This document shows, piece after piece, positions 726 to 53,223 of a stretch of 64,000 bases of DNA. The notes below the pieces were generated by a model that worked only from the letters and a program-made list of their open reading frames with translations, searched no databases and had not been told where the DNA came from. This DNA is from Gemmatimonadaceae bacterium (GTDB lineage: Bacteria > Gemmatimonadota > Gemmatimonadetes > Gemmatimonadales > Gemmatimonadaceae). Where the stretch lies: NCBI GenBank assembly GCA_035638155.1, contig DASRAP010000433.1, positions 4,569 through 68,568 on the forward strand. Direction: 5' to 3'. The number at the start of each line of letters is the position of its first letter. Position 1 is the stretch's first letter. The position numbers and the translations under genes are program-made.

Positions 726-861
726 CGAGCCCTCCTTGCCATTTGCCAAAACAGCGCGATGAAGCCCACGACCAAAACGGCACCGATGAAGGTCAAGCGC
801 TCAGAGCGCGGCAGCCGATCGAATGGCAAGCCCAGCGTCATCGGTTTTTCCCAGCGGAGTA

Positions 862-1113
862 TCATCCTCCGATTGGCTTCATTTGCAGCCACTCACCCGC
901 GGCTTTCTTGTTCGCTATCTCGAAAGAAGCCGCCTCGAAGGCGCGCACCCAAACGGCCGGATCAGTGACCTTGCCGCTGGTCAGCGCGAAGTCGAGCGCG
1001 CTCTGAAGGATCGGCATGATCGTGTCGGCGACGAGCGGCTCCTGCTCGGCGAGGATCAACAAGCGATTGACCAGGCCGAGGTAGTTTTCCGGAATGGGGA
1101 CGGGGACGTTCAT
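862..1113 (-). CDS. Hypothetical protein (83 aa)
   Basis: Internal ATG of track ORF 862..1263 (MNVPVPIPENYLGL..). GGTGAGGTG SD-like leader. ATGA overlap with the stop of 1110..1301. Confidence 0.55.
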   Translation of the reverse strand: MNVPVPIPENYLGLVNRLLILAEQEPLVADTIMPILQSALDFALTSGKVTDPAVWVRAFEAASFEIANKKAAGEWLQMKPIGG

Positions 1114-1303: not shown

Positions 1304-1594
1304 CTAGGAGCCCGATGAGGGCATGCGCACGCGATCGGTTAGAATTTTTATCTTTACCTGGACAGCTACGAAGCCGACACGGAGACCGACGTGCGGATCG
1401 CCGATCATATAGGTCACTTGGACGTAGCAGGTCGGACCCGTGTACTCGCCCGCGTCCGCTGACCATTCCCGCAGCTTCAGGATGTCGCCGAGGAGAATCG
1501 GAGGTTGCGCTTCGCAGATCAGAAAGTGGAGACGCTTCTCGGCGATCGCCCGGTAGGTGGGGATGTGGAGTTTGATTTCGCGAAAACCGCTCAT
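1304..1594 (-). CDS. ASCH-superfamily (DUF3850-like) protein
   Basis: REIKLHIPTYRAIAEKRLHFLICEAQPPILLGDILKLREW..GEYTG..VQVTY resembles DUF3850/ASCH small beta-barrel proteins. ATGA overlap with 1591..2283. Confidence 0.6.
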   Translation of the reverse strand: MSGFREIKLHIPTYRAIAEKRLHFLICEAQPPILLGDILKLREWSADAGEYTGPTCYVQVTYMIGDPHVGLRVGFVAVQVKIKILTDRVRMPSSGS

Positions 1595-2283
1595 GCTGCA
1601 CGACTCACCACTTTCGTTAGCACGTAGATCGCGCCCGCCACCAAGGCCACCAATCCGATCGCTGCGCCCGCACTGGCCCCCTGGGCAACACCGCCAGATC
1701 CGCCGCCACTCGGCATCGGCTCGTTCCGCGCTTTGGTGATCGCCTGGAGGTTCTTGGTCATGGCGGCAATGTGTTTGCTCAGCGCGAGCTCGAAGTAGTG
1801 CGACTCGCGGAGCGTCTTCGAGAAATTCGCGATGTCGCCCATGTTGGCCGCCGCGAGCACCTTCGGACGCTGCTTGTAGAGTACCTGGATGAAGTGCGTG
1901 AATCCCTCATCGGGCGAAGCGTACTTGCGAAAGCATGCCTGGTAGGCTGTGCTTCCATGCTCGGGACCGCGATGGTCGGTGGCCTCGAAGCAGCTGCTCG
2001 AGCAGGGCGGCAGACCGCACTGCACCGCGCCCATGTTCCAGGTGTTGCAAGTGGTCGTGCCAGCGGGGATGTTTTTGTAGCAGGCTTGTCCGTAGTAGGA
2101 CTCGCCGCGCGAAACGGCTTGCGCGAATTGGGCCTCTAGTAACGTCGGCGTTCGGCCGAAAACGACCTTGAACGCGTTTTCGATGAAGGTGCGGGCGGAA
2201 ACGTCGCTTATTTGTGCCGCACCGAGGCCGACTTGGCGCGCGCCAAGCACTCTCACTTCACCGAGCCAAAGAAGCTTCGACAT
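1591..2283 (-). CDS. Membrane-anchored peptidoglycan hydrolase, paralogue of 1..725
   Basis: GESYYG..WNMGAVQ..CFRKYASPDEGFTHFIQVLY parallels the catalytic region of 1..725. C-terminal TM AAIGLVALVAGAIYVL. N-terminal MSKLLWLGEV tag. Confidence 0.65.
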   Translation of the reverse strand: MSKLLWLGEVRVLGARQVGLGAAQISDVSARTFIENAFKVVFGRTPTLLEAQFAQAVSRGESYYGQACYKNIPAGTTTCNTWNMGAVQCGLPPCSSSCFEATDHRGPEHGSTAYQACFRKYASPDEGFTHFIQVLYKQRPKVLAAANMGDIANFSKTLRESHYFELALSKHIAAMTKNLQAITKARNEPMPSGGGSGGVAQGASAGAAIGLVALVAGAIYVLTKVVSRAA

Positions 2284-3932
2284 TAGCGCCGACGCTTTCT
2301 GCCGCGGGCTCGTCGCTTGTGCGCGCGTTGGGCGGAGCGCTGCACTTTCGGCGAGCGATAGCCCAGTCGCACTACGCGCTCATGGGGCGCTGGACCTTGC
2401 GGCAAATCGCGGATTCCTGCCTCGGTCGGTCCGCGCCGCAGTCGCCGCGACACCATTGTGGCTGCCGCATCTTGAGAAGGCGCTCCGCTGACTCGATAAA
2501 CGGTTCCGTCATGGTTGTCATAGACGTAATACACGCCAGGCGGCGTCTGTGGAGATTCGGCTTCGTCCAGTGGCGTCTTCTTGAACCAACCGGACCAGAA
2601 GGCGTTCTCGTTGCTCGGATTCGAACGTGCCGCTGGCCGCTTCGGCGTGGCCGCTGTAGCACCGCTACTTCCGCCACCGAATATCGCCGCGCCGAGACCG
2701 AGGAGCGCGAGCGCCCCGACCGCAATCAGGATGCCAGTGTTTCCGCCACTTTCCGAGCTCGAAGGCGTTCCCCCGCCCGGGATCGGAGTCGGAGGGATCG
2801 GCAGGGGCGTCACGACGCAGAGCTTGCTCACCGGATCCCAATGGAAGCCGGGATCGCACTGCGTGACGTCGCTCGGATTTCCCGGAACGGGAGTCGGCAC
2901 GCGCGGAAGCGGCACTTGCGGAGTCGGCGCCGACGGAACCGGAGCGGATGGCGCCGGCGCGCTCGGAAATCCGGGGTTCGGGAGCTGTCCGGGGACGATC
3001 GTGATGCCCTTGGCCTGCGCCCAGACTTTCAACGAGTAAAGGCCCTGGGTCGTCAGGTCTTGCCACGCGATTTCGTTTTTCGTGGTGGGATTCGGGAGCG
3101 GTGGCGCCCATCCGGATTTGTTCCACCAGTTGTAAAAGTTCGCGAGGGTCCAGCCGTCGCGATCGCCCCAGACGAGCGAAATGTCGGCCGGCTGAAGACC
3201 ATAGCTGCCGATCGAATTGTTTCCGTCGGTTCCGTTCCATGCGGCGAGAATCGCCTTGGCCATCGCGACGTCGGCGTCGGGAAGAGCGCCGAGATCGCCG
3301 GGACCTTGGATGGTCACGGGAGGCCGATAGCGCGAGGTCGATGGAAAGATCGGAGCGATCGTTGTGAGAGGCTGGCGATATCCCGGGGGAGTTGGCATCG
3401 GTGCCGGGAGAGTGGGCAGGTAGGGAGGAATGCACCCGAAGCTGCCGTCGTCATGGACGATCTTCGAGTAGCCCGGAGGGCACGTGGTTTTGATTTGGGT
3501 GCCGGTGCTCAGAACTTCGTTGAGACTCTTCGAGACAGGGTCATAGCAATAGTAGTTAGCATTCCCACTGCCGGCGCTTTTGCTGAAATCGAAGGGTTCG
3601 AAGTTGGCGCCTTTCGGCACGAATTCGAGCGCGCACACCTTGAGCGGCTTCGATGTTTTCTTGGACCATTGCTCATAGAGCGCGCGCATGCGCTGTACGG
3701 CGACCCAGCGCAAAACCGTGTTGAAGGTGATTCCGCTCTGAAGTGGGAAATCTTCATGCACATAGTCATCGCCACCCGGGAGCGGGAAGACGGGGAATGG
3801 AGCCGCTGCGTTGAAAACGTAAATCTTCCACGCACCGCTCGTGTTCCACCACTGCCACTCGGCTGGCGTCATGCCGAGCTGCCCCGGCGCGCCGAGCACT
3901 TGGACCTTTTCTTCTAGCCATCGCATCGACAT
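2283..3932 (-). CDS. TM-anchored late protein with polybasic C-terminus (549 aa)
   Basis: MSMRWLEEKVQVLGA tag and Pro-rich linkers. Domain AWNGTDGNNSIGSYGLQPAD..FYNWWNK is shared with 3939..4559. TM GILIAVGALALLGLGAAIF. Tail AHKRRARGRKRRR. TAATG coupling to the next gene. Confidence 0.7.
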   Translation of the reverse strand: MSMRWLEEKVQVLGAPGQLGMTPAEWQWWNTSGAWKIYVFNAAAPFPVFPLPGGDDYVHEDFPLQSGITFNTVLRWVAVQRMRALYEQWSKKTSKPLKVCALEFVPKGANFEPFDFSKSAGSGNANYYCYDPVSKSLNEVLSTGTQIKTTCPPGYSKIVHDDGSFGCIPPYLPTLPAPMPTPPGYRQPLTTIAPIFPSTSRYRPPVTIQGPGDLGALPDADVAMAKAILAAWNGTDGNNSIGSYGLQPADISLVWGDRDGWTLANFYNWWNKSGWAPPLPNPTTKNEIAWQDLTTQGLYSLKVWAQAKGITIVPGQLPNPGFPSAPAPSAPVPSAPTPQVPLPRVPTPVPGNPSDVTQCDPGFHWDPVSKLCVVTPLPIPPTPIPGGGTPSSSESGGNTGILIAVGALALLGLGAAIFGGGSSGATAATPKRPAARSNPSNENAFWSGWFKKTPLDEAESPQTPPGVYYVYDNHDGTVYRVSGAPSQDAAATMVSRRLRRGPTEAGIRDLPQGPAPHERVVRLGYRSPKVQRSAQRAHKRRARGRKRRR

Positions 3933-3938
3933 GGAACA

Positions 3939-4559
3939 TCACCTCAAGAGCAGGGCAGCAAGACCGAGCACCGCGCCGACGATCGCAAGGACGCCCACCG
4001 CCCCAATGCCCTCCGAGCTCGGCGCTGACGTGATCGGCGCGGGCGGCGCCGGTAGGGGCGTCTGATTCGTCGGAACCGGAACCGGGATCGGTACGGGCAC
4101 CGGAACTGGTTGAGGTTGCGTGCGCGGACCGCAGGCCGCGAGACAGGTCGCGAGATTCGCGAGATCGCCCGCGTACTTCTGTTGACACGCAAGCGCGCAG
4201 TTGACGGATGGCGCCGGAACTTGGCCGGGATTGATGACGCCCTTTTCCACGCCCCATTGCAGAAGCGCCTGGAGATGCTCGGGCTTCAGATCGATCCAGG
4301 TGTACGAGCCGGGCGCGGGGAAGACCGCGGGCTGCTTGTTGTTGGCCTTCCACCAATTGGCGAAGCAGGCGAGCGCGTTTCCATCGCGCGTTTTCCACGT
4401 GGTCGGATCGACGTCGTCCGGCTCGAGGCCGTAGCCGGTGACGCAATTGTTGCCGTCGGTTGCCACGAACGAAGCGAGCAACGCCTTGGCTTGCGCGTTC
4501 GAGGGCGCGTCGAGAGCACCCAAGAAGTCGACTTTCTTTTCTAGCCAGCGCATGCCCAT
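3939..4559 (-). CDS. C-terminally TM-anchored paralogue of 2283..3932 (206 aa)
   Basis: MGMRWLEKKVDFLGA tag. FVATDGNNCVTGYGLEPDD..FANWWKANNK repeats the domain of the neighbouring gene. PVPVPVPIPVPVP linker. C-terminal TM GAVGVLAIVGAVLGLAALLL. Confidence 0.7.
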   Translation of the reverse strand: MGMRWLEKKVDFLGALDAPSNAQAKALLASFVATDGNNCVTGYGLEPDDVDPTTWKTRDGNALACFANWWKANNKQPAVFPAPGSYTWIDLKPEHLQALLQWGVEKGVINPGQVPAPSVNCALACQQKYAGDLANLATCLAACGPRTQPQPVPVPVPIPVPVPTNQTPLPAPPAPITSAPSSEGIGAVGVLAIVGAVLGLAALLLR

Positions 4560-4562
4560 GAC

Positions 4563-5141
4563 TCACCTCGAGAGAAAGAATGCCGCGAGGCCGATCACGA
4601 TACCCGCGATCGCGAGCGCCACGCCGGTGCCGCCGCCGGACGCCGCGGGCGTCGTAGAGCTCGCGGGCGGCGTCGTCGTGCCACCACCGCCGCCAGATCC
4701 GGGACGGGGGATTTTCTTACCGCCGGGCGTGCCTTGCGTCGTGGGACCGAAGCCGCACTTCTGGCCGCACTGAATCGCGGCGGCTTTGAGCGCCGCTTCG
4801 TCGGTGCCTACCGCTTCTTGCTGGAAGGCGTCCATACATGCGTTGAAGCACGGGCTCACCTTTGCGCCGACCTTCTGCATTTGCTCGTGGTCGACCAAGA
4901 TCCCCGCGCCGCACGCTTCGGTCATGCACTGGTTCACGCACGGCCAAATCAGAAGTCCGCCCCAGCCGCCGATGCCGATCGCGGTGCAGATCGCGTAGCA
5001 GGCGTCCTGGTTATAGAGGTTTGCCTGGCACGCGGAAGTGGTCGGCTCGGTGAAAAGTCCGACGCCAACAGGCGCAGCAAGGCGGCCGTTCCAGCGAACT
5101 GAGGAACGCGGGCCGACCTGGCCGCGCCAAGCTACGATCAC
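4563..5141 (-). CDS. Cys-rich C-terminally TM-anchored protein (192 aa)
   Basis: GTG at 5141 in GTGA overlap with the stop of 5138..5509. (M)IVAWRGQVGPRSSVRWNGRL parallels MIQSWSGQVALRPNGRL. 10 Cys. TM VALAIAGIVIGLAAFFL. Confidence 0.6.
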   Translation of the reverse strand: MIVAWRGQVGPRSSVRWNGRLAAPVGVGLFTEPTTSACQANLYNQDACYAICTAIGIGGWGGLLIWPCVNQCMTEACGAGILVDHEQMQKVGAKVSPCFNACMDAFQQEAVGTDEAALKAAAIQCGQKCGFGPTTQGTPGGKKIPRPGSGGGGGTTTPPASSTTPAASGGGTGVALAIAGIVIGLAAFFLSR

Positions 5142-5509
5142 GGGTTTGCTCTCATGTGCCCGCGTCCGCCCGCGAACATGATCGCCGCGGCGACCGCGAG
5201 CGCTCCGCCGAGCAACCACACGATCACAGGGACGCCCGCCGTCGCCGACGAGCTCGCGGGCGCGGGGGCCGGCGCGGGAGTCGGGGTCGGCGTCGGCGCG
5301 GGGACCGGAATGCCGGCGTTGATGACTTCGCCGATTTTAGCGGGGAGCTCCGCCGGGGTGAGGCCGCACGCCTTGAGGCACGGCTCGATGCACGTGAGGA
5401 ACGGGCGAGCGTTGGCGCACGATTGCGCGCAAAGCGCCTCGCAGTTCGAGAGGGCGCCGAGGCGCCCGTTCGGGCGGAGGGCGACTTGTCCTGACCAGGA
5501 TTGGATCAC
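5138..5509 (-). CDS. Cys-rich C-terminally TM-anchored protein (123 aa), paralogue of 4563..5141
   Basis: GTG start in GTGA overlap with the upstream stop. 6 Cys. PAPTPTPTPAPAPAP linker. TM VPVIVWLLGGALAVAAAIMF. Confidence 0.65.
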   Translation of the reverse strand: MIQSWSGQVALRPNGRLGALSNCEALCAQSCANARPFLTCIEPCLKACGLTPAELPAKIGEVINAGIPVPAPTPTPTPAPAPAPASSSATAGVPVIVWLLGGALAVAAAIMFAGGRGHMRANP

Positions 5510-6717
5510 GCTGCCGCCCTTCTACGCTTCGGGGCCGAGCGCCGACGCTTTTGCGAACGAGCTCGCGCCGCGCGCGCGGGCTGCTTCGGGAGGTTCGGGG
5601 CACGCATGCCCAAGAAGATCGCGCCGATGGCCGCGCCGATGCCGAGTAGCCAACCCCATCCGGAGCCGCCACCGATCCCGGCGGTGGTTGCCGTGGATTC
5701 GCAAGATCCGTCAGCTGCGCGCTTGTAACCCGTCGGGCACTTGTCGACGCACGATCCGGACACGCACTCCTTGGTCGGATCGGTGCACGGCGTTGCGGGC
5801 GTGCACTCCGGAGCGGGCGGCGGAGGAGCACCACCGCCGCTTCCCGCTGCGGCTTCGCACTCGTTCAGTTGCTGTTGGATTTGGTTGACCTGCGCTTGCG
5901 CTGCGTTTCGCGCTGACACTTGTCCGGCATATTGCGCGTCGAGAGCTTGGCCGGTGGCCGTGTCTCCGTTTTGATACGCCGCGATGCGCGCGGCATCGAG
6001 GTCGACGATGTAGCTCTTGATTCCCGCCAGTTTTGCCTTAGCGGCCTGCAACTGAGCATTTAGCGCGTCGCACGCTTCGTTTTGCCCGAGCCGCCCCTCG
6101 CCCGGACCGAACAAGAACGGAACCGGCGGGCGCGTGATGCGCGTCTGAAATTGCGTGGTCGTGACGGTCGTTCCGCCGAACGGCTGAGTCCCGAACGGGC
6201 TCAGCGGGATGCTTCGCCGAAAGAACGACGTGAACGGGAACGGATAGACGAACGGGATCGGATTGGGCGGAGGCGGCTGGTAGTTTCCGATCGTCGTCTT
6301 GACGCCGTCGTAGGTGCAGTACGAGACCGGCTGCATCAGGATGTTGGTCTTGGTGTACGAGCCGCACACGGCCTTGTATTTCCAGACCGGAGTGGCGCCC
6401 GGTGGAATGCCGCCCGGCTGCCACGAGTTGAACGCCTGCGTGATGCCCGCGTAGCCCTGCGCGTGCGTTCGCAGATGCGGCCCGCTGGTGCCGACGAGCT
6501 GGCCGTTGTTGTAAAAGTAGTAGGTCCAGTACTCGAGCTCGTAAGGCGCACCGACGCCTTCCTTCGGTCCGAGCAACTGCTGAGGCCCGCCGGCTCCGCC
6601 GCGATCGTGCAAGAACACCGGCCGGAGATTCGGCGGCATCACCGCGCTGCCGAAGTACGCTCGCGCGCTCGGTCCGGTTTGCGTCTTCACCGGGTCAATC
6701 CATTTCACGAGCGCCAT
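5506..6717 (-). CDS. Beta-rich + coiled-coil + Cys-cluster protein with C-terminal TM and polybasic tail (403 aa)
   Basis: Start moved to ATG 6717 (MALVKWIDPV), a 1-nt TGATG overlap with the upstream stop. Ala/Gln heptad-like stretch. TM WGWLLGIGAAIGAIFLG. Tail RSQKRRRSAPKRRR. Confidence 0.7.
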   Translation of the reverse strand: MALVKWIDPVKTQTGPSARAYFGSAVMPPNLRPVFLHDRGGAGGPQQLLGPKEGVGAPYELEYWTYYFYNNGQLVGTSGPHLRTHAQGYAGITQAFNSWQPGGIPPGATPVWKYKAVCGSYTKTNILMQPVSYCTYDGVKTTIGNYQPPPPNPIPFVYPFPFTSFFRRSIPLSPFGTQPFGGTTVTTTQFQTRITRPPVPFLFGPGEGRLGQNEACDALNAQLQAAKAKLAGIKSYIVDLDAARIAAYQNGDTATGQALDAQYAGQVSARNAAQAQVNQIQQQLNECEAAAGSGGGAPPPPAPECTPATPCTDPTKECVSGSCVDKCPTGYKRAADGSCESTATTAGIGGGSGWGWLLGIGAAIGAIFLGMRAPNLPKQPARAARARSQKRRRSAPKRRRAAA

Positions 6718-7607
6718 CAGCGTGGTCCTTTCGGTAAATCTTCGCAGCACGGGAAAAGCTCGACGGCCAAGCCGCCCGCGACTCGTCCGTAAACGACCGG
6801 CAAGGGTGAATCGAGCTCCTCGAAGGCAGAGACGAACTGATCCTCGGGGCGACCGACGCCCGCAGGGATGTTGAGGCCACAACGGCTGACCGGATTGGTC
6901 TGATGCACCGAGGCGTAGAAGGTCACTCGCCCAGGGCCGAGCACCGGGATCGAGAGCTCGCGCGCCGTCGGGTCGAGATAGCGCATGTCGCGCCACGTCC
7001 CGAGCAGGTCGACGTCAGCGCCAGGCGGGATGCCGGCGCCGGGGGGCTTGTACGGCAGGAACGGCGGCACATAGAGCAACGCCGCATCCTGGCCGCTCAT
7101 CGAAGGGCTCGCGCCGTCCGGTTGCGCGGGATCGTTGACCGACTCGGGGGAGAAGCGGTGGGGCTCGTAGCGCAAATGCCAGGAGATGTTTCCGTCCTGG
7201 AAGTGCCAGCCGGGGGAAGTGATCTCGAGCTCGACCGGGACCGGTCCGCACTCGGTGCTGCGCGATTGAGGCACGGTGCGAATCGTCGCGTACTGCCAAA
7301 TGCCGCGGATCACGATCGCGCGCTTCTTGTCGATTTCGACTTGAAGCAACCGAATCAAGTAGCGCTCAGCTTGCGATCGCGTCGCGTTGTCGGGCACGCG
7401 CACGCCAAGCGCGCTCGTGTCTCCCAGCCACGGCGTCGAACCGATGCCGAGCAAGTCGGGATCGAACGACTGCGTGAAGAGCTCGATCACCGCGCGGCAG
7501 TCCCAACGCGGATCGGCGCTCCCCAAAAACGAGGGATGGCCCACGACGCCCGCGCGCTTGGCGCGCTCGGCAGAGAGAGAGATTACGGATTTGGCGTTTG
7601 CCGACAC
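6717..7607 (-). CDS. TM-free structural candidate (296 aa), possible vertex/minor capsid protein
   Basis: GTG start behind AAAGGGGAA. Real CDS by composition. The function is inferred only from position after the two other capsid-size ORFs. Confidence 0.4.
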   Translation of the reverse strand: MSANAKSVISLSAERAKRAGVVGHPSFLGSADPRWDCRAVIELFTQSFDPDLLGIGSTPWLGDTSALGVRVPDNATRSQAERYLIRLLQVEIDKKRAIVIRGIWQYATIRTVPQSRSTECGPVPVELEITSPGWHFQDGNISWHLRYEPHRFSPESVNDPAQPDGASPSMSGQDAALLYVPPFLPYKPPGAGIPPGADVDLLGTWRDMRYLDPTARELSIPVLGPGRVTFYASVHQTNPVSRCGLNIPAGVGRPEDQFVSAFEELDSPLPVVYGRVAGGLAVELFPCCEDLPKGPR

Positions 7608-7621
7608 GGGCTATTCCCCTT

Positions 7622-8335
7622 TCAGGGGCAGCCCGGCCCCAAATCCCTCGGAGCGAAAACGCCCTCTGCCTGGAGCTCGTCGATGATCTGCGTGAAGTCG
7701 CAGCCGTTGTAGAGACCGGTCGGAAGCCGCGTCCCGTGAAAGGTGATAATCGCCTCGGTCGGTACTTCGTCGGCTTGAAGAGTGCGGAGGTTCGTGAAGA
7801 GGGCGTCGAAGGTGGCTGAGCACTTCAAGACCAGGCCGGCGGGGCAGACGCACTCGAAGACCGCTTCGATGTTCTCGAGGGGGGTCGGCTCGGTGTTGAT
7901 CAGGTAGTTGCAGAACGAGTGGATGATGAGCGAGTTCAGGTCGATGTTGGGGTTCAGGCGATTGAAGTAATCGGACTGAGCCTTCCAGATCGATCCTGCC
8001 GCGAAGTTCGGGCGGCGCACCGTGTAGGTGACGCGCCGGATCCAAATGTCGCTTTCGACCGTGCCGAGCATCTGACCCAGCACGGGCTTGTCCGCCGTGG
8101 TCGCATCCCAACGCGCTTTCACGCTGAGCATCACCCAGCCGTTGGTCTCGGTCACCAGCCAGCCGTCGCCAGCCATGCGGTAGCCGAGACCCTTTTTCGC
8201 GGCCTGCAAGAGCGTGTGCGCCAGCCGTGGCTCTTGGAGGGCGATCCCTCCGAGCCATTGCGGCGCCGCCGCTCGGCGCGCCCGGGCGAGCGCGGCCGAA
8301 ACCTCGTCGCCCGGAGCTGTGTTGGGTGCGTTCAC
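7622..8335 (-). CDS. TM-free structural candidate (237 aa), possible single-jelly-roll/penton-like protein
   Basis: GTG start 41 nt after the stop of 8377..9561. No TM and no motif. Functional call is positional inference. Confidence 0.4.
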   Translation of the reverse strand: MNAPNTAPGDEVSAALARARRAAAPQWLGGIALQEPRLAHTLLQAAKKGLGYRMAGDGWLVTETNGWVMLSVKARWDATTADKPVLGQMLGTVESDIWIRRVTYTVRRPNFAAGSIWKAQSDYFNRLNPNIDLNSLIIHSFCNYLINTEPTPLENIEAVFECVCPAGLVLKCSATFDALFTNLRTLQADEVPTEAIITFHGTRLPTGLYNGCDFTQIIDELQAEGVFAPRDLGPGCP

Positions 8336-8376
8336 TGGAGTGTGGCCTTGCCGATGACCTTACTTACCCGACGACC

Positions 8377-9561
8377 TTACTTCGCCGAGGCGAGGAGGTT
8401 GTCGAATTGCTTCTTGACGTCTTCCGGCAGGCCGTTCAGGGCGCCGCGGTTCGCGATGAGCTTGCTCGTCAGGTACGAGCCGATGCCCACCTGCTGGTAG
8501 AGCATTTCGAGCGCGCTTCCCGAGGTCACTCCCGCGAGGTACTCCACGCAAGCCGCCGGCACGAGGTCGTAGCCCGCGAGGACCGCGCCGATCGTGAAAC
8601 AGCCACCCGGCACCGTGTAGATCCCGGCGTTGCCCGAGCCGCACTCGAGCGTGTCCGTGAACTGGCTGCTCGGCAGAGTCGGAGTGGCGCAGTCGAGGAC
8701 CGCGTCGCGCCGCATCGCCGGGAAGAAGCAGCAATCACCCTCGACGCGCGTGAAACGGACGTCGATGGTCATGCCGGGCAACCAAAGGATCGGGAACGGC
8801 AGCGGATAGCAGCGGTTCGAGATGCCCTTGGTGTGCTGGCTTCCCCACATCGCTTCCGCAGTCGGCGCGGGCATGCACTCGCTACCAGCGGCGGTGTTCT
8901 GGGGGATGAATTGCTTGTTGCAACCCTTGGCCACGAGCACGTCGTTGACGTCGCGATTGAACGGAGTCGTCGAGATGAGCGAGGTGCCGCTCCCGACGAA
9001 TTCCATGGTCGCTCCGACGAGACCCATGACGTGGGCCGCTTCCTCGAAAATCTGGAAATGCCGTCCGATGAACATCGAGACGCGGTACGCCTGGAAGAAC
9101 TTCTCGATGATGTTCCAGGTCGGGTAACCCCATGCGAGCACCGCGTTGTGCTCGTCGAGCGCGCCGGTGCATCCGGTCACGCAAGGGGTCGGTCCGCCCG
9201 AGGCGACCACGTTCTTCATGACGCCCGTGAGCGCGAAGCCCTGGCCCTCTGCGGTCGCCAAGATGCCGAAGCCCATCATGAGGAACGGAGTCTCGACGGT
9301 CGTCCCGCGCGAGAGATTGGTCTGGCGACCCGGGCACGCTTGCGGCTGGTCGAGCGTGAAGAGTCGGATTTCCCCGGGGAATGCCGCGTCGAATTCCTCG
9401 GGCGTCATCGGCAGTTGGTACTGCGCGATGTCGTAGAGGCGAGCGGTCAAGCGCGAGAGCGGGCTCTTGCCGGCCGTGATCTGGCCGAGGATGCCGCCCT
9501 TGTGGGTCGGCTCGATCTGCGAAAACTGCTTGTGGTCTGCCTTGATAACTTCGGTCGCCAT
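8377..9561 (-). CDS. Candidate major capsid protein (394 aa, 12 Cys)
   Basis: Largest TM-free late ORF, preceded by the only ~100-nt gap of the late operon and an AAAGGA leader. Gly/Thr/Val-rich. Size is typical of double-jelly-roll capsid proteins. The CDS is solid; the fold is unverified. Confidence 0.45.
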   Translation of the reverse strand: MATEVIKADHKQFSQIEPTHKGGILGQITAGKSPLSRLTARLYDIAQYQLPMTPEEFDAAFPGEIRLFTLDQPQACPGRQTNLSRGTTVETPFLMMGFGILATAEGQGFALTGVMKNVVASGGPTPCVTGCTGALDEHNAVLAWGYPTWNIIEKFFQAYRVSMFIGRHFQIFEEAAHVMGLVGATMEFVGSGTSLISTTPFNRDVNDVLVAKGCNKQFIPQNTAAGSECMPAPTAEAMWGSQHTKGISNRCYPLPFPILWLPGMTIDVRFTRVEGDCCFFPAMRRDAVLDCATPTLPSSQFTDTLECGSGNAGIYTVPGGCFTIGAVLAGYDLVPAACVEYLAGVTSGSALEMLYQQVGIGSYLTSKLIANRGALNGLPEDVKKQFDNLLASAK

Positions 9562-9663
9562 TTTCTTTATCGATCCTTTTTCAGCGGGGCCGGCCGGTGT
9601 ACGTGCGCGGGCGACCCCGATGAATAAACGTGTTGGAGCAAACTTTTTGGTGAATTTTCGCGA

Positions 9664-11514
9664 TCAGACTTCTTGCGGCGCTTCGTCCATGTTCCAGAAG
9701 GAAATGGTCCCGGAGGGTCGCTGACGAGCAACAACCTTCTCGGGCTGTTGCGGCTGGCCGTTCGCCTTTTCAGGGGCGGCGCCGGCCATCGTTCCGGCGG
9801 CGGTCATGACCGTCGTCGTGGGGGGCGTGATCAACACACGCTCCGGGCCGCCAGGAATGGGAGCGATGGTCTCGGTGACGACCGTGCCCGAGGGGACATA
9901 CGGAGTCGACGGAACGAGCGGCACACCGGCGGGGACTCCGCCTTTGCGCTGTTCGACCACCAAGCACATGCCGTACGGCAAGCGCACCGAGTTTCCGACC
10001 ACCCAGTAGGTGTCCGGAGTGCCACCATTCATGGCGGAGACTGCGTCGATCGAGACACCACCGGCGGCGGCGATTTCGGCGAGATCATCGCCGACTTCCA
10101 CCTCGTAGGTGCACTCGGTGTACGGGCGGTAGCTGTCGCCACAGCCCGGACAGAGCGATTGGCAGTCGCTGTAGCAACCGTCTTTTCCACCGCACGATTG
10201 GCAGTTTCCAAGACGGTTCGTTTGGAGGAACGTCCGCGGATTTTGGCCGGAACCCACACTGCCCGCGGGGTCAGTTAGGGCTTGCGCTTTTCCCTGGGGG
10301 TTTGCTCCCAAGACCGCGAGGTTGGTCGTCTGGTCGCCGAGGGGCGAGTTGATCTGAGACGCTTCCCCTTGCTGGCCCGCCGAAAGCGAGGGCACCGTCG
10401 CCCAAGCCTTGAACGACGCATCGATCGCCTTCTGCACCGAGTCCTGCTCGAGTGCGTACATGCGATTCGCGAAGGACATCGGCTTCGCCGGGTCGACCTT
10501 CAGGATTGCCGGCATCAGGTACCAGTTAGCGAGCTTGAGGAGCGCGTTCGAGCCGAAGCCGAGCGCGATACCCGAAGCGAGCCACGGGATGATGCCGCGA
10601 CCGCGCGTCCAAGCTGCGAGGCCGAGGGCGACGACGCCGCCCACAACCTGCACGCCGAGGCGCGTGGCGTCCGGCCGGCGGTAGATCGCGGCAGCCGCGT
10701 CTGCGCCGTACCAGGCATTTTTGCCGTCCTTCGGCTTCATGGTCGCGACGACGCGATCCACGAAGTCGGCGACCAAGAGCCCGATCGCCACGCCGGCCGC
10801 AGCCGTGCCGTACCGAACGAGGTTTTCTCGGGTGTAGGGGCTCGCGGGATTCGAGAGAAGCCCGCCGATCCCGGGATTTTCGAGCATGGCCATTTCGCGG
10901 CGGGTCAAACCACCGGCGAATTTGCCGCTGCGCGTACGTTTGTACTTGCAGGGCGGGCAACGCCGACGCGAAGACCGGCGGCGCGAAGCCGCTCGAGTCG
11001 TCCGGCGACGCTTCCGGCCTCCACCGTGGCGGCGTTTCCGCCACCCCTTCCGGGCCGCTCGAGCATGCCGGCGGGGCTGACCCGGCCAGGCGTTCTCGAG
11101 GGTCACGGTGGTCGGATTTTCGTTCTGGGCCGCGGCGGCCGCTCGGCGCCGCTTCGGGCGTCGGCGTGCCTTTCGGCGGCGGCGGCGGTTCTCTTCGTAC
11201 CGCCCACGATTGTCCGCGACGCGGCGACGCTTGGCGTAGCGACGCTTTCGCGGATTGGCCGAGGCGCTCGCAGCGGCGCGGCGGCGACGGCCACCACGCT
11301 TCTTGCGACGAGCGGCTTGCGCCTTTCGGATGTTCTTTCGAGCAGCAGCGATCTGAGCGCGAGTTGCCATCTTGTTCTCTTCGTGGGCCTTCAGCGCGTC
11401 AGCACGACGCGGCGATTTGATGCCAGGATTTTCGAGGTAACGAGCGATTTGCGCTTTTACGCGCAAAGCGACTTTCGTCGGCTCCGCACACGCACACGCC
11501 ACGTTTCTCGCCAT
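9664..11514 (-). CDS. Polybasic + multi-TM + Cys-cluster + LysM protein (616 aa)
   Basis: The first ~215 aa are Arg/Lys-rich (RRKKRGGRRRR, RRRRRKARRRPKRRR, GGGRKRRR). Then 3-4 hydrophobic helices and CQSCGGKDGCYSDCQSLCPGCG. YEVEVGDDLAEIAAAGGVSIDAVSAMNGG..VVGNSVRLP fits the LysM pattern. Start is uncertain (11514 or ATG 11370). Confidence 0.7.
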   Translation of the reverse strand: MARNVACACAEPTKVALRVKAQIARYLENPGIKSPRRADALKAHEENKMATRAQIAAARKNIRKAQAARRKKRGGRRRRAAASASANPRKRRYAKRRRVADNRGRYEENRRRRRKARRRPKRRRAAAAAQNENPTTVTLENAWPGQPRRHARAARKGWRKRRHGGGRKRRRTTRAASRRRSSRRRCPPCKYKRTRSGKFAGGLTRREMAMLENPGIGGLLSNPASPYTRENLVRYGTAAAGVAIGLLVADFVDRVVATMKPKDGKNAWYGADAAAAIYRRPDATRLGVQVVGGVVALGLAAWTRGRGIIPWLASGIALGFGSNALLKLANWYLMPAILKVDPAKPMSFANRMYALEQDSVQKAIDASFKAWATVPSLSAGQQGEASQINSPLGDQTTNLAVLGANPQGKAQALTDPAGSVGSGQNPRTFLQTNRLGNCQSCGGKDGCYSDCQSLCPGCGDSYRPYTECTYEVEVGDDLAEIAAAGGVSIDAVSAMNGGTPDTYWVVGNSVRLPYGMCLVVEQRKGGVPAGVPLVPSTPYVPSGTVVTETIAPIPGGPERVLITPPTTTVMTAAGTMAGAAPEKANGQPQQPEKVVARQRPSGTISFWNMDEAPQEV

Positions 11515-11525
11515 GCACGAAAAGA

Positions 11526-12113
11526 TTATGGCCAGCGAAATCCGTGCTCGTCAACAATACAGCCGCGCGGAAGCGGCAAACGCCACCCCAAAGTGCGCTT
11601 GCTATAACGCACCTCAACGGGCGGATCGTATTCGTGCTCGAACGGCTTGTCGAAGCCCGGACGCCGATAGCGAATGAGACGCACGCGCGCTAAGCGCGCC
11701 CACGGTCCCTCGGGAATTTCCACCGATCCGTAAGTGAGAGGAAGTGGGCGGTCGTTCTGATCGACGAAGTACTTTTCTGCGTCATCGAGCACGTCGCCAG
11801 GTGCGTTTTTCGCACCTCCTCCGCGCGCTCGAACAATATACAAATCGCACCGGTCCAAAAGTGCGCCGGTCGTGTCGTGCACGAGCACATACCCCCGCGG
11901 GAAGGTCACGTCGGCCGCCGGCATGCGCGGTTCCCAGAAGACTTCGCGCTCTCCGTTTGGACCGGTCGCGCGCACGATGCGGCGCGCGCCGGAGTTTCGC
12001 ACGCGTTCGACGGACACGAATTGGATGTTCGTGCCGCGCACGATCATGTGGTGCGTGTAACACGCACCGGTCGTGCAATCTTCAGCTTCGACGATGCGGC
12101 CGGAGTCCGTCAT
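11526..12113 (-). CDS. Hypothetical protein (195 aa)
   Basis: MTDSGRIVEAEDCTTGAC.. with protein-like composition. TAATG coupling to the upstream stop. No motif recognised. Confidence 0.7.
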   Translation of the reverse strand: MTDSGRIVEAEDCTTGACYTHHMIVRGTNIQFVSVERVRNSGARRIVRATGPNGEREVFWEPRMPAADVTFPRGYVLVHDTTGALLDRCDLYIVRARGGGAKNAPGDVLDDAEKYFVDQNDRPLPLTYGSVEIPEGPWARLARVRLIRYRRPGFDKPFEHEYDPPVEVRYSKRTLGWRLPLPRGCIVDEHGFRWP

Positions 12114-12979
12114 TAGGCCGCTCGCGCCAATTGACGACTCGGCGGAAGCGCGCGCGAGCTCGAGCGCGCACCCGCAGGCGGCACCAAGCGCACGAGTGCG
12201 TAAAGCACACCGAGACCGAGCGCGACCAGCGCGACGGTCTTAATCGTGTTCGTGATGTCGGTAGTGGGCTGACTGCCGGCTTTGATTTGCTCGACCTTCT
12301 GCGCGCGCACCGCAGCGGCGCCGGTGTAGATCGATTGATTGAGCTTCGCGGCTTGGTCGGGCGTGCATTTTCCGGTCGTCACGCACTCGTAGGATTTTTC
12401 CGCGATCGTGCGCATCGTCTTTTGCTCGGCGACGTCAGTGATGTTGTTGACCGCTTTCTCGACCGCCCAGTACGCGGGCAGAGCGAGCACCGTGACGCCC
12501 AAGGTGGTAGCCCACACGATCGCGGGCACTCCGACTTGCCCTTGCACGTGCGTTTGCTCACCCGCGGGATTCACGATGATCGGCACGTCGCCATTGAGCG
12601 CCAAGCGCACGACGTCCGATGAGAGCCCCTCGATTTCGAATTGATTCTTTTCCGTGTTCCAAGCGACTTTGCGCTTTCCGGCGATCGCGTCGTTTAGGGC
12701 GTCGGTGATGATCTTCACCATCGCCATCGCGTCGACTGCGTTCTGATCGAGATCCGAAGACCACGCCGACGCGCTCGACATGCCCGGGACGGCGCCACCC
12801 TCCGGGCCGGCGCCGTCGACCAGGAACGGCAGGCCGAGATTCTGCCGGACCGTCTTTAGCCCGGTGTAGGCGGCGACAGCTCGCGTCCACGAGCCTTGCA
12901 GGTTGTCGCGGAGCGCCGTGAGGTACGCTTCCCAGGCTTTTTCGTCGGCCGGCTGGCCCAGCCATCGCAGCTTTTTCAT
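12113..12979 (-). CDS. Membrane protein (288 aa, two TM helices)
   Basis: Start moved to ATG 12979 (MKKLRWLGQP tag). TM helices VPAIVWATTLGVTVLALPAYW and IKTVALVALGLGVLYALV. Confidence 0.65.
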   Translation of the reverse strand: MKKLRWLGQPADEKAWEAYLTALRDNLQGSWTRAVAAYTGLKTVRQNLGLPFLVDGAGPEGGAVPGMSSASAWSSDLDQNAVDAMAMVKIITDALNDAIAGKRKVAWNTEKNQFEIEGLSSDVVRLALNGDVPIIVNPAGEQTHVQGQVGVPAIVWATTLGVTVLALPAYWAVEKAVNNITDVAEQKTMRTIAEKSYECVTTGKCTPDQAAKLNQSIYTGAAAVRAQKVEQIKAGSQPTTDITNTIKTVALVALGLGVLYALVRLVPPAGARSSSRALPPSRQLARAA

Positions 12980-13137
12980 TTGTTGAGTCTCGCTCGGTAG
13001 ATGTTGATTGCCAGGGAAGTCGCTGAAATCAGCAGGCCCACGATCGCAAACCACTCGATCCGCGAGAGCCTATGGCCGTCGCCCGGGATTTCCTCGGGAG
13101 CGGCGGAAACCTGACCGGACCAGCGCAAAATGGCCAT
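12976..13137 (-). CDS. Small TM protein (53 aa), not in ORF track
   Basis: MAILRWSGQVSAAPEEIPGDGHRLSRIEWFAIVGLLISATSLAINIYRARLNK has the N-tag plus one TM. High GC3. The stop overlaps the next start (ATGA). Confidence 0.5.
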   Translation of the reverse strand: MAILRWSGQVSAAPEEIPGDGHRLSRIEWFAIVGLLISATSLAINIYRARLNK

Positions 13138-13147
13138 CGCTCGCCCT

Positions 13148-14140
13148 CTAGAGTAGCGCCCAAATCACGAGCGCGACAATGCCGGCGCCGATCGCCAAGG
13201 GCGCGATGCTCGATCCGCCGCCTCCGCCGCCGCTCCCGGCGGCGGCGACATTCTTGAAGTCGATCTGCGATTTCAGCTTTTCGATGAGCGGCTCCATCGA
13301 TTTGCTCGGGAGCTCCGTCAAGCACTGCGGATCTTCACCGTGCATGTTGCTCGGCGTCTTCGGGTCGAAGACGTTGAAGAACCCCGCTGGGCAGTCGCCC
13401 TTACTCTGAAACCAGCTCGAGGCATTCTCCATGCGCCCGACCGCGAACCAATCGATCGGCTCGCCGGGCTTGGCGATGGGGCCGAAGTTACCGTTGAAGT
13501 AGGTCAGCCAAACGTAGTCCTTGCAGGTCAGCTTTTCGTTGACGATGCCGAGCTTCTTGGCCACCGCGCACTCGTCGAGCGCCGTCTTCGTCAACTCGAA
13601 CTTCTCATACGCTTGCGCCGCCGCGTAGCGCTCGGCGCTCGGCGCAAACTTCGAGAACACCGGCGCCGGTGGCAAGCCCGCTTCAGTCAGCGCCACGTCG
13701 GAAGCGCCTTGGCTGATGGCCAGATCGCGGAGCGTCAAATACGACTTGACGGCAAGGATGCCCTTGGCCGCGCGCTTGGCACGCGGGGCGGTGAAGTCGT
13801 TCCAGGTTTCCGAAACCAAGTCCTCCATGGTCGATCCCTTGGCCACAGGGATCGATTTTCCGATGAAGCCGCCGATGATGCCGCCCAAGATCGCGCAGCC
13901 GCCCGCGACTGGAGCAGTCACTACGAAGGCCGAGCACGCCGCAGCGCCACCAATTGCGCCGCCCACCTCGCCGTAGGCTTTCAGATCCGCCGAGCTCGTG
14001 CCGCCCTTCCGCTCGATGATCTCTCTCGTGAGCGGATTGGTTGCCTTGTCCATTCCGGAATACGCGCCGAGGCCGACGGGCCGCCTCGAGCTCGGCGAAA
14101 GCACGAGCGGGACAGACGCATTCCAGATAAGGGCGGACAT
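13148..14140 (-). CDS. Membrane protein with Gly-rich hydrophobic segment and C-terminal anchor (330 aa)
   Basis: MSALIWNASV tag. GGAIGGAAACSAFVVTAPVAGGCAILGGIIGGFIG segment. C-terminal GGGGGGSSIAPLAIGAGIVALVIWALL. Confidence 0.7.
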   Translation of the reverse strand: MSALIWNASVPLVLSPSSRRPVGLGAYSGMDKATNPLTREIIERKGGTSSADLKAYGEVGGAIGGAAACSAFVVTAPVAGGCAILGGIIGGFIGKSIPVAKGSTMEDLVSETWNDFTAPRAKRAAKGILAVKSYLTLRDLAISQGASDVALTEAGLPPAPVFSKFAPSAERYAAAQAYEKFELTKTALDECAVAKKLGIVNEKLTCKDYVWLTYFNGNFGPIAKPGEPIDWFAVGRMENASSWFQSKGDCPAGFFNVFDPKTPSNMHGEDPQCLTELPSKSMEPLIEKLKSQIDFKNVAAAGSGGGGGGSSIAPLAIGAGIVALVIWALL

Positions 14141-14159
14141 CGCCTCACCAGTTTAAGAG

Positions 14160-14906
14160 CTAGCCGGGACAGCGAGCAAGCGTGAGCGCTCTTTCGAGCG
14201 TCCGATCACCCGGCTTCCACACGACGCGAGCTCGGAGGCCGCGCAAGCCGTCAACGCCAATGAAAACGCCCTTGTCGACGAAGTTTAGCCGGTCGGGATC
14301 GAAGGACCTTCCGCCGCCCGCGCCGATGCACACTTCGTCGTCGCAAATCACCTTCACGTTTGGGACGGAGAGGATCCGCTCGTAGGTGAAGGGGACGCAT
14401 TTGCCGAGCTGGTAGTCGGTCGACGGATCGCCGTAGTGCCAGCGGCCGTCCAAGTGCGCGGCGCACAGCACGTGCTCGATGTTGTGCTCGTCGTCGTACG
14501 CATGGCCCACCACCAAGGTGTGGATCCCGACGGACATCCAAGCCGCGCCGAGGAGCGTCGCGACGCCGTCGCAATCGTCGCCACGAATGCAAACCTTGTT
14601 GGGGTTGGTCTTCGGATCGCACGCGAGCAAGGTCGCCGCCGGCATGTATTCGGCCCCGATTGGGTCGGGCACCCATAATTTCTTCTGGACGGCGGAAAGG
14701 AGAATGCGCGCGCGGTCGTTCGGGGTCTTGGCGCTCGAGAGGCCGCGTTCGCGGGCCACGTCGAGCATTTCGATCGCCCAAGTGCGCACGCCCGGATCGA
14801 TCGCGCCCTTCGAGACGCGCTTGGCCACTTCGTCGAGCGAGCTATTGACGCCCGCTTTGCCGAATGGGTGCTCGCGTTCGGTTACAGCAGTCCAAGGGGC
14901 GGGCAT
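14160..14906 (-). CDS. Transglutaminase-core / papain-like cysteine protease candidate
   Basis: GDDCDGVATLLGAAWMSVGIHTLVVGHAY..EHVLCAAHLDGRWHYGDPS fits the Cys-His-Asp transglutaminase-like core. Confidence 0.6.
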   Translation of the reverse strand: MPAPWTAVTEREHPFGKAGVNSSLDEVAKRVSKGAIDPGVRTWAIEMLDVARERGLSSAKTPNDRARILLSAVQKKLWVPDPIGAEYMPAATLLACDPKTNPNKVCIRGDDCDGVATLLGAAWMSVGIHTLVVGHAYDDEHNIEHVLCAAHLDGRWHYGDPSTDYQLGKCVPFTYERILSVPNVKVICDDEVCIGAGGGRSFDPDRLNFVDKGVFIGVDGLRGLRARVVWKPGDRTLERALTLARCPG

Positions 14907-27516: not shown

Positions 27517-27767
27517 ACCCGACCTGTAACAGTCGCGTTGACGCCACCGAGTTGTTTTGCGCGCTTGGCCGCCGCAATCGCCGACGTCCGCCGGTGAAAT
27601 CCAAACTCCAGGTCCCGCCAGCCCTCCGTAAACGAAAACCCCGCTCCGTCGTGCCGACGTCCTACGGCCGCACAGATCGCCTTGTCTCGCTCGCGATCGA
27701 ATCCTTTATATTCCACCATCACCGAGAACGGGGGCGGGGGCTTCCAGCGGACTTTCTGCTTTTTCAT
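27507..27767 (-). CDS. Hypothetical protein (86 aa)
   Basis: Internal ATG 27767 (MKKQKVRWKPPPPFSVMVEYKGF..) in ATGA overlap with the upstream stop. Confidence 0.55.
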   Translation of the reverse strand: MKKQKVRWKPPPPFSVMVEYKGFDRERDKAICAAVGRRHDGAGFSFTEGWRDLEFGFHRRTSAIAAAKRAKQLGGVNATVTGRVWP

Positions 27768-53222: not shown

Positions 53223-53223
53223 G

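Follow-up and report, generated by a model that had tools for sequence, protein, structure and literature searches.

A short N-terminal tag with the core [R/K]-Φ-x-W-[L/V/S]-G-[Q/E/A]-[V/P] (Φ, hydrophobic residue; x, any residue) marks the single-pass membrane proteins of the structural module in a novel family of large double-stranded DNA phages. It was found in a 64,000-nucleotide stretch of DNA, hereafter the window (contig DASRAP010000433.1 of the Gemmatimonadaceae assembly GCA_035638155.1, positions 4,569 to 68,568). The tag is real and conserved across a diverged virus family, it is confined to the structural module, and nothing in the existing annotation explains it. An earlier note, made from the letters of the window, had drawn attention to ten such N-termini and proposed a virion-incorporation or protease-recognition signal. 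As a real, conserved, protein-level feature of the structural module only, the tag has stood; its role is argued from sequence, and the reading tentatively favoured here is that of a leader or junction signal read by a phage-encoded cysteine peptidase.

The late module consists of tightly packed minus-strand genes in the window region 700-21,000, mostly joined by stop/start overlaps (ATGA, GTGA, TGATG). All ten N-termini listed in the earlier note were recovered as quoted on the minus strand. A tryptophan at residues 3-8 was found in 11 of the 15 late-module proteins of the window vs 6 of its 88 other predicted proteins (p=6.6e-8). A comparison set of 12 related loci was retrieved via the capsid and peptidase genes; there, the same was true of 47/134 late vs 14/111 other proteins (p=3e-5), with the Trp position peaking at residues 5-6. 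The motif scan of N-termini suggested in the earlier note thus gave an enrichment in late proteins in both sets. When the pattern ^M.{2,5}W.[GED][QEKDP], derived from the N-termini listed in that note, was run on 2482 candidate starts in six frames, nine of the 11 matches fell in the late module. LG[AQE] was enriched 5.4-fold in the first 30 residues of late proteins over the remainder of those proteins (p=4e-21) and about 20-fold over the N-termini of early proteins. Likewise, [WFY]LG was 7.9-fold enriched at late N-termini, where GG, AG and LA showed no enrichment. In late N-termini, Leu-Gly was followed by Ala (25), Glu (14) or Gln (12). The tag is absent from early genes, from the methylase and the Rep candidate, and from the fibre-like proteins. 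Free motif discovery on N-termini by expectation maximisation with zero or one occurrence per sequence (ZOOPS-EM) resulted in a degenerate model (λ ~0.9) and was dropped; fixed regular expressions with controls were used.

Selection on the tag acts at the protein level, since the codons at its Leu and Gly vary synonymously, roughly as in genome usage, and since tagged genes overlap with their upstream genes by 4 nucleotides at most. An origin in the start context or at the RNA level was ruled out on the same evidence. The start-context nucleotide bias that the earlier note had named as a possible refutation is excluded by these synonymous codons and short overlaps. Paralogy was also ruled out as the source of the likeness: once the first 25 residues were removed, only 2283-3932 and 3939-4559 were detectably homologous (E 1e-14) and all other pairs of bearers were unrelated, as the earlier note had maintained. 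The start codons that it had re-assigned hold as well. Those at 5141 (GTGA), 6717 (TGATG) and 12979 (ATGA), together with the GTG start at 5509 (GTGA), overlap upstream stop codons, and independently called orthologues in other contigs begin at the same motif. That the tag is an artefact of start context or translational coupling, of wrong starts or of simple paralogy can hardly be believed. The tight coupling of the genes, the one paralogous pair and a real nucleotide-level effect at C-termini could be cited for it; against it stand, besides the short overlaps, the synonymous codons and the unrelated bearers, the early genes of the same genomes, which lack the motif, and the orthologues, which start at it in 12 independent contigs, as do 28 homologues that other pipelines had called in databases. 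The C-terminal effect is an example of what a nucleotide-level artefact looks like. It was seen at the C-termini of 21 of 348 proteins (e.g. 1591, 5506 and 12113 in the window), many late proteins ending in R-A-A-stop; these endings stem from GCN-GCA-TGA, GCG-TGA or TGATG overlaps with the next start and reflect a nucleotide constraint, not a protein signal.

A length of nine to ten residues had been given for the tag. The Trp box is real, but the motif is longer and often bipartite. In many tags a second box, [R/K]-x-L-G-A, is located 3-15 residues further on (WLGEVRVLGA, WLEEKVQVLGA, WSGQVALRPNGRLGA) and is followed by a Pro/Ser/Thr/Gly linker. The tag is doubled in locus L013 (MRVDWVKPTKKLQWLG, MKVNWVAPRRNVQWLG), and some genomes display the doubled pattern Φ-x-W-V...Φ-x-W-L-G; the tags of locus L011 read M-x-L-x-W-V...LG. 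Two tandem copies are present in L002_12765, the orthologue of the lysin-like protein 1591-2283. Very short tags also occur among relatives (MKWLG, MIQWLG, MIAWLG). The 28 homologues of protein 12113-12979 nearly all begin with M-x(1-12)-[W/Y/R]-L-G-[Q/A]: Met and Trp are 1 to 12 residues apart, W-L-G is held 8-10 residues before the conserved domain, and Leu-Gly is kept even where the Trp is substituted, which makes it the most conserved part of the tag. By inspection, no Sec h-region, twin-arginine motif or lipobox was seen in the tags, as charged residues interrupt them and neither RR nor L-x-x-C is present. A Sec, Tat or lipoprotein signal, which would need a hydrophobic core, RR or a lipobox, was therefore rejected.

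The bearers are membrane proteins. A transmembrane (TM) helix is predicted in 58/68 tagged vs 39/87 untagged late proteins, and a helix near the C-terminus in 35/68 vs 9/87 (p=1.5e-8). In tagged proteins the flank before the helix is a Pro/Ser/Thr/Gly stalk, and among those with a single helix the C-flank is the more basic one in 32 and the N-flank in 9. Between tag and anchor, Cys-rich modules, a weak glucosaminidase-like domain (window) and many domains without annotation were found; the tagged proteins of relatives include SLT transglycosylases and a GDSL lipase. All these proteins are presumably located in the virion. Two proteins of the fibre region, 52449-53249 and 53224-53697 (both minus strand), begin with the tag-like sequences MLSFAPWIDMRL and MKLTWEPNHELRK (compare MALVKWIDPV and MTLQWEWRED); they may be additional bearers of the tag that lie apart from the main module. 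A second motif of late proteins, Φ-x-[E/D]-N-P (LLENP, LQENP, LRDNP), is about 5-fold over expectation. It lies mostly in basic tails behind TM helices and in the Arg-rich protein; examples are 9664-11514 (MLENPGIGG) and loci L004, L006, L008 and L013.

The candidate enzyme is the 248-residue product of 14160-14906, which the earlier note had called a protease. Its AlphaFold2 (AF2) model (predicted local distance difference test score, pLDDT, 86) matched the PDB entries 3kd4 and 3isr, PNGase, LapG (4fgo/4fgp/4fgq), TG2, TG3 and factor XIII in Foldseek, with probabilities of 0.98-1.0 for 3kd4, 3isr and LapG. The top 50 PDB matches were transglutaminase-like folds, not adenain or Ulp1. In 34 homologues C112, H145 and D160 do not vary, and gp34 of SSIP-1 (Salisaeta icosahedral phage 1) has them too. 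No Pfam family was matched, and a profile search against PDB sequences gave nothing significant; a profile search of metagenomes collected 1040 clusters at 50% identity. An identical protein has been deposited from a Gemmatimonadaceae metagenome-assembled genome. A transglutaminase-like cysteine-peptidase fold thus supports the earlier assignment, and the link to the tag is circumstantial: it is made by a motif that stands behind the catalytic domain and at fusion junctions. The N-terminus MPAPWTAVTE, formerly taken for a weak tag, had to be struck from the list, as it is the conserved N-terminus of the peptidase family itself (W.P.V..R.HP.GE.GV); the tag-like motif of this protein is RVVWKPGD, near its C-terminus.

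Across the peptidase family, a tag motif around the near-invariant Trp230 directly follows the catalytic domain. It reads RVVWKPGD in the window, RIAWLGVG, RFRWLGAE or RLEWLGEV in relatives, and RVVWVPDERPPVKWLGS in L013, where the tags are likewise doubled. The model is of low confidence here (pLDDT ~51-67), and the stretch is probably flexible. The peptidase motif is nearer to the tags than random Trp-centred octamers are (8.6 vs 4.6) and resembles those in its own genome slightly more (permutation p ~0.05, 7 genomes). In long forms of the peptidase a linker and then a TM helix come after the motif, and the 53-residue tagged TM protein of the window aligns end to end with the tail of such fused peptidases. 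In many relatives of 400-900 residues the peptidase is joined to another domain downstream, and the motif stands at the junction in one to three copies. Residues 248-476 of P0125 correspond to residues 6-232 of the free-standing L011_6420 (60% identity, E 2e-89), the alignment beginning at WLGD/YLGD; similarly, residues 222-350 of P0114 correspond to residues 17-141 of L002_11308 (E 2e-28), beginning at LGQ/LGA. Judged from these alignments, fusion or fission of peptidase and cargo occurs exactly at the motif. The similarity of the downstream domain of P0104 to window protein 13148-14140 was not significant, and for the distant peptidase P0155, which carries SGLIG three times at its junction, no matching N-terminal tags were found in its own locus L015. 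In P0044, P0047, P0049 and P0051 (also L008:10001-11197 and L012:10001-11125), a segment of about 150 residues is inserted right before the catalytic Cys (GDD/CFAEGT...VSQ/CDG). It is probably a mini-intein; the match to Hint_2 is weak (E 0.003, below cutoff). Several further representatives from the profile search show similar length anomalies.

SSIP-1 is the only cultured relative that was found. Its gp34, by annotation a structural virion protein that has a C-terminal TM helix, aligns with the peptidase at 24% identity over 87% (tblastn E 5e-5, pairwise E 1e-11), and phmmer gave matches from nine loci. SSIP-1, an icosahedral phage, has two types of capsid protein and an internal membrane (PMC6356626, PMC6260650). 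It also encodes many small C-terminally anchored membrane proteins, none of which bears the W-L-G tag; apart from gp34, no protein of SSIP-1 is similar to those of the family at the sequence level. Pfam and PHROG scans of the structural proteins gave nothing significant, and no HK97-type capsid, portal or scaffold was among the matches. For the capsid candidate (8377-9561) 23 database homologues were collected. Its AF2 model (pLDDT 77) shows a disordered stretch at residues 1-22 and two β-rich halves, each with a helix. The Foldseek neighbours of the model are jelly-roll capsid proteins, none of which passes E 0.1 in the PDB; one BFVD match, a 211-residue protein, reached E 6e-4. The BFVD matches I1ZBH9 (211 residues) and I1ZBI0 (256 residues) have the lengths of gp46 and gp47, adjacent genes of SSIP-1, an identification by length only. 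Alignment of the capsid profile with gp46 and gp47 by hhalign was not significant, nor was any match of this profile to PDB sequences. The capsid candidate had no match in cultured phages; a scan for relatives found none in genome contigs and only the source contig in viral contigs. In line with the earlier note, this protein, like its 296-residue and 237-residue neighbours, bears no N-terminal tag; what had been missed is that all three carry Φ-L-G-[Q/E/G/S] 20-30 residues in. LGQ is conserved in the N-arm of the capsid candidate.

In the window and in loci L002-L013 and L015, neither a packaging ATPase with a Walker-A motif nor a terminase or portal could be recognised. Walker-like strings were confined to GQITAGKS, a match by chance in the N-arm of the capsid protein, and to the UvrD helicase of L010. 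The related contigs are 45-112 kb long and encode PolA, ThyX, UvrD, a dCTP deaminase and NUDIX proteins. A non-tailed virion with a membrane is the most reasonable picture for this family, given the homology of the peptidase to gp34 of a phage with an internal membrane and the dozen or so small single-pass TM proteins in the structural module. The phage group lives in soil and is apparently large and one of Gemmatimonadota.

The tag is best read, with a chance that comes close to even without reaching it, as a leader or junction signal that would be recognised by the virion peptidase and probably cut after Leu-Gly. Binding to the motif, the cut and its position are deduced from sequence patterns. 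The peptidase would bind Trp-Leu-Gly with the Leu in a hydrophobic S2 pocket; a hydrophobic S2 pocket that takes Leu at P2 is the typical specificity of papain-like (clan CA) enzymes. Cleavage after Gly would remove a minimal leader of 5-25 residues from each membrane protein and possibly also the disordered N-arm of the capsid protein, and in relatives with joined genes it would separate the peptidase from the protein fused behind it. Such processing would be a maturation step tied to incorporation into the virion membrane. The tag has the pattern expected of a P2-P1-P1' site, as Leu-Gly is its most conserved part and is followed usually by Ala, Glu or Gln and then by the Pro/Ser/Thr/Gly-rich linker. 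Further arguments for cleavage are leaders as short as the P side requires, the occurrence of the motif at natural polyprotein junctions and directly behind the catalytic domain, in a probably flexible stretch, and the resemblance between the motif of the peptidase and the tags of its own genome (in L013 both are bipartite). The annotation of gp34 as a structural protein with a C-terminal TM helix would put the enzyme in the right place. The transglutaminase-like fold is common to proteases that process N-termini, such as LapG (PMC3032545). Shared N-terminal motifs cut by a cysteine protease have been described: the host protease Prp processes the capsid and scaffolding proteins of phage 80α and also ribosomal protein L27 (PMC5744158), and the adenovirus protease AVP processes pVI and pVII (10.1101/857581).

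Several points weigh against cleavage. The fold also covers non-proteases (transglutaminases, PNGase, N-acetyltransferases), and a virion-anchored cysteine peptidase could instead be a cell-wall (peptidoglycan) hydrolase used at entry. The conserved Trp, the Φ-x before it and the doubled W...W go beyond the needs of protease subsites and look like a β-hairpin docking element. The loss of only 5-8 residues would bring no obvious benefit, and the tandem copies at junctions can be explained by plain fusion of a motif-bearing peptidase to a tagged gene downstream. Co-variation between motif and tags within genomes is weak (p ~0.05, 7 genomes). Finally, SSIP-1 and L015 possess the peptidase and have no recognisable N-terminal tags on their membrane proteins; the tag system is thus not a general requirement of the enzyme, and the set of tags would be an innovation of the subfamily to which the window belongs.

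Part of this evidence fits better with an uncleaved docking or sorting signal, the main rival reading, which we regard as possible, if on balance unlikely. The tag would form a β-strand or β-hairpin on a common site, e.g. the underside of the jelly-roll capsid or a membrane assembly factor, and would select viral membrane proteins and the membrane-anchored peptidase for the membrane patch that ends up in the virion. This is consistent with the tight association of the tag with TM proteins (C-terminal helix in 35/68 vs 9/87), with the strong conservation of the Trp and with the alternating hydrophobic residues and doubled Trp boxes (RVDWVKPTKKLQWLG), which look like a Trp-stabilised hairpin; the tandem tag in L002_12765 would raise avidity. 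Similar Φ-L-G-[Q/E]-[I/V] strings stand in the N-arms of the capsid protein and its two conserved neighbours, and the peptidase would bear the motif simply as another virion membrane protein. A precedent exists in adenovirus, where N-terminal peptides of pVI and pVII occupy one pocket of the hexon cavity (10.1101/857581). However, tags such as MKWLG, MIQWLG and MIAWLG offer little to dock with, the tag is biased to the extreme N-terminus and not to any disordered region, a docking signal has no need of a place at the peptidase domain boundary, and SSIP-1 and L015 do without it. Cleavage and docking can be combined. The W-L-G tag would then be a zip code that picks the virion membrane proteome: its hairpin docks on the inner face of the jelly-roll lattice and nucleates the shell over a patch of host membrane rich in viral proteins, after which the tag-recruited peptidase clips behind Leu-Gly, frees the membrane from the shell and matures the particle. 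The whole of this chain is doubtful; if it held, it would give prokaryotes a counterpart, built on an unrelated protease fold, to the maturation of adenoviruses, virophages, asfarviruses and poxviruses by Gly-specific cysteine proteases.

Two further explanations have less in their favour. An unconventional membrane-targeting or export signal, read on the emerging chain of proteins without Sec signal peptides, perhaps with large N-terminal domains at the trans face of the membrane, would account for the position of the tag at the extreme N-terminus and for the absence of a classical signal peptide from its bearers. Some of these are cell-wall or lipid hydrolases acting outside the cytoplasm (SLT, GDSL), and their basic C-flanks (32 vs 9) suggest an N-out/C-in topology by the positive-inside rule, although an inference from flank charge is weak for tail-anchored proteins. 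The motif is also internal, behind the peptidase domain and in fused proteins, no candidate translocase was recognised, and the tags possess no hydrophobic core, twin-arginine motif or lipobox; altogether export appears quite improbable. The fold of the enzyme, similar to those of TG2, TG3 and factor XIII, could also be taken literally. A true transglutaminase would cross-link the Gln of the tag (W-x-G-Q) to Lys of the capsid or other proteins and so staple the membrane proteins in. Many tags have a Gln at the required place (WSGQV, WRGQV, WLGQP), but with Ala (25) and Glu (14) ahead of Gln (12) after Leu-Gly this residue is not required, and several tags of the window have Glu, Lys or Asp/Pro there instead. 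Cross-linking is thus very unlikely.

The system is functionally like several known ones and a member of none of them, as capsid type, protease fold or sequence family, and motif differ. The earlier note had compared the tag with the capsid-targeting sequence (CTS) of T4 internal proteins. In T4 a peptide of about 10 N-terminal residues is the sole feature common to diverse virion proteins, and a phage maturation protease (gp21) is present (PMC3012670). A short N-terminal peptide is also the only similarity among the diverse bearers here, whose virion membership is probable, and to this extent the comparison stands. It fails on the nature of the bearers, which are single-TM membrane proteins and not cargo of the capsid interior: the proteins that T4 directs to the scaffolding core of its HK97-fold prohead are soluble, whereas the bearers here are TM proteins of a probably non-tailed, jelly-roll-type virus. 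Neither an HK97 prohead with scaffold and portal nor a protease of the gp21 family (S77/U9-type) was recognised by Pfam and PHROG or in the models. The motif and the protease fold of T4 are unrelated to those found here, and removal of the peptide, established in T4, is proposed here from sequence.

The adenovirus protease cuts at (M/I/L)XGG-X or (M/I/L)XGX-G. Several adenovirus virion precursors (pVI, pVII, pVIII, pIIIa and others) have short N-terminal peptides with an ending of the hydrophobic-x-Gly type; these bind to the jelly-roll capsid protein, and the virion cysteine protease cuts them off (10.1101/857581). The parallel extends to the Arg-rich, core-like protein 9664-11514, which bears the motif too. 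The site here would be W-L-G-[Q/E/A], however, so that only the logic of a hydrophobic residue followed by Gly on many precursors is shared; adenain (MEROPS C5) has an Ulp1-like fold and the enzyme here a predicted transglutaminase-like one, the bearers are membrane-anchored, and a double-jelly-roll capsid is only suggested. In 80α, a conserved N-terminal motif on non-homologous proteins is cut off by the cysteine protease Prp, with the loss of 13-14 residues and with unclear benefit (PMC5744158). There the protease is encoded by the host and has two or three substrates; the candidate here is phage-encoded, bears the motif itself and would have about a dozen, all membrane proteins. LapG shares the transglutaminase-like Cys-His-Asp fold with the peptidase and cuts a short motif of small residues near the N-terminus of its substrate at the membrane surface (PMC3032545, PMC10990149). 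Its di-alanine site (T-A-A-G) lies in one or two giant adhesins and its action is periplasmic and calcium-dependent, whereas the motif here is W-L-G; by sequence, the peptidase matched neither LapG nor Transglut_core (no Pfam match, no PDB sequence match). SSIP-1 differs in that its proteins lack the W-L-G tag and in its structural Walker-A ATPase gp40 (GEKGSGKST), of which no counterpart was found here. Double-glycine leaders of bacteriocins have conserved hydrophobic positions, end in Gly-Gly, Gly-Ala or Gly-Ser and are cut by a papain-like C39 peptidase. A short N-terminal leader cut by a cysteine peptidase is what is proposed here as well, but no ABC transporter or C39 domain is involved, the residue spacing is different, and the bearers are large membrane proteins and not secreted peptides.

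How membrane proteins are selected for the virion membrane is poorly understood in PRD1, PM2, SSIP-1 and their relatives, and we know of no maturation protease or shared sorting or cleavage signal described for bacterial membrane-containing phages. About a dozen unrelated membrane proteins with one motif, linked to a virion-type cysteine peptidase, give a concrete and testable hypothesis on the virion membrane proteome. A shared virion signal with a cognate protease would be a known kind of system, here in a new virus family and with a peptidase fold new to such a role; if true, it would have evolved convergently with the Gly-specific maturation proteases of eukaryotic jelly-roll viruses. As neither Pfam nor PHROG annotates the structural proteins, the tag is also of practical use as a marker by which to find the structural membrane proteome in this unstudied, apparently large group of soil phages. 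If it directs incorporation or cleavage, it could serve for loading or releasing engineered proteins in lipid-containing virus-like particles. The features of the window are listed below.

Table. Features of the late module and other annotated genes of the window
Coordinates	Strand	Feature	Remarks
3-749	-	Endolysin-like protein with PG_binding_1 domain	Runs off window end
722-865	-	47-residue tagged small TM protein	Tag MILRWEKPMTLGLP, then TM helix; ATGA overlap with upstream gene
1304-1594	-	Protein with L002 and L003 orthologues matching DUF3850	
1591-2283	-	230-residue lysin-like protein	Tag MSKLLWLGEVRVLGARQVGLGA (three LG boxes); C-terminal TM helix
2283-3932	-	549-residue membrane protein	Tag MSMRWLEEKVQVLGAPGQLGM; TM helix at residues 400-418; paralogue of 3939-4559
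3939-4559	-	206-residue membrane protein	Tag MGMRWLEKKVDFLGA; C-terminal TM helix
4563-5141	-	192-residue Cys-rich membrane protein	GTG start; tag (M)IVAWRGQV...NGRLAA; C-terminal TM helix
5138-5509	-	123-residue Cys-rich membrane protein	GTG start; tag MIQSWSGQVALRPNGRLGA; C-terminal TM helix
5506-6717	-	403-residue membrane protein	Tag MALVKWIDPV; TM helix near C-terminus, then basic tail
6717-7607	-	296-residue conserved capsid-associated protein	No N-terminal tag; internal PSFLGS about 25 residues in
7622-8335	-	237-residue conserved protein after capsid gene	Internal QWLGGIAL, about residues 25-32
8377-9561	-	394-residue major capsid protein candidate	Jelly-roll-like model; disordered N-arm with GGILGQI
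9664-11514	-	Arg-rich membrane protein	Motif ENAWPGQPRRHA from 11106 (NAWPGQP)
12113-12979	-	288-residue two-TM protein	Tag MKKLRWLGQP 8 residues before AWEAYLxALRD domain; ATGA overlap
12976-13137	-	53-residue protein consisting of tag, linker and TM helix	MAILRWSGQV...
13148-14140	-	330-residue membrane protein	Tag MSALIWNASV...RRPVGLGA; C-terminal TM helix
14160-14906	-	248-residue transglutaminase-like Cys-His-Asp peptidase (predicted)	C112, H145, D160
14205-14228	-	Tag-like motif RVVWKPGD (residues 227-234)	Directly after peptidase catalytic domain; W230 nearly invariant
22933-24099	-	C5 cytosine methyltransferase	
27764-28438	-	DUF3560 protein	
34213-35118	+	NUDIX hydrolase	
45078-46172	+	Tyrosine integrase	

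Orthologues of the individual late proteins carry comparable motifs. The counterpart of 722-865, a tagged gene that lies outside the range covered by the earlier note, is L002_14287 and begins with MTPVRVLGEEP. L003_8745, the orthologue of 5506-6717, starts with MGALKWLDPV, and those of 13148-14140 begin with MLTWDRTSRVRLLGV, MIAWLGEP or MYLEAYLGD. The internal motif of the untagged neighbours of the capsid gene reads FLGES or FLAGN in orthologues of 6717-7607 and PRFLGEIAL, VTLGEIA or LWLGNIA in those of 7622-8335. The lysin-like protein 1591-2283 has a weak Glucosaminidase match (E 0.015, below the Pfam cutoff).

The start of the Arg-rich protein 9664-11514 is ambiguous (ATG 11514 or GTG 11106). 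Its first 136 residues are extremely rich in Arg, protamine-like, and are followed by a conserved motif, NAWPGQPRRHARAARKGW, and by a membrane domain. In orthologues this motif either forms the start or occurs once or twice internally, after an Arg-rich segment. The sequence ENAWPGQPRRHA at 11106 would accordingly be either the true N-terminus or a junction behind the 136-residue segment, and this segment could be a DNA-condensing piece that is released from the membrane protein.

The label Rep, given to 19237-20766 (minus strand), goes back to a sub-threshold Pfam match to REP_ORF2-G2P (E 3.6e-4; 21 bits, where the cutoff is 27.8); in related contigs, PolA and UvrD are encoded instead. The tyrosine integrase suggests that the element is likely temperate. 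Four fibre-like proteins (48938-49516, 54265-54645, 54957-56624 and 56627-58285, all on the minus strand) share the N-terminal module MGxIxDxLKSVxGQxQLxSPLGxW, which was also found in L002:16371-17775 and L003:13732-15219. The bodies downstream are divergent and partly repetitive, and the module probably serves alternative spikes or fibres as a shared domain of attachment.

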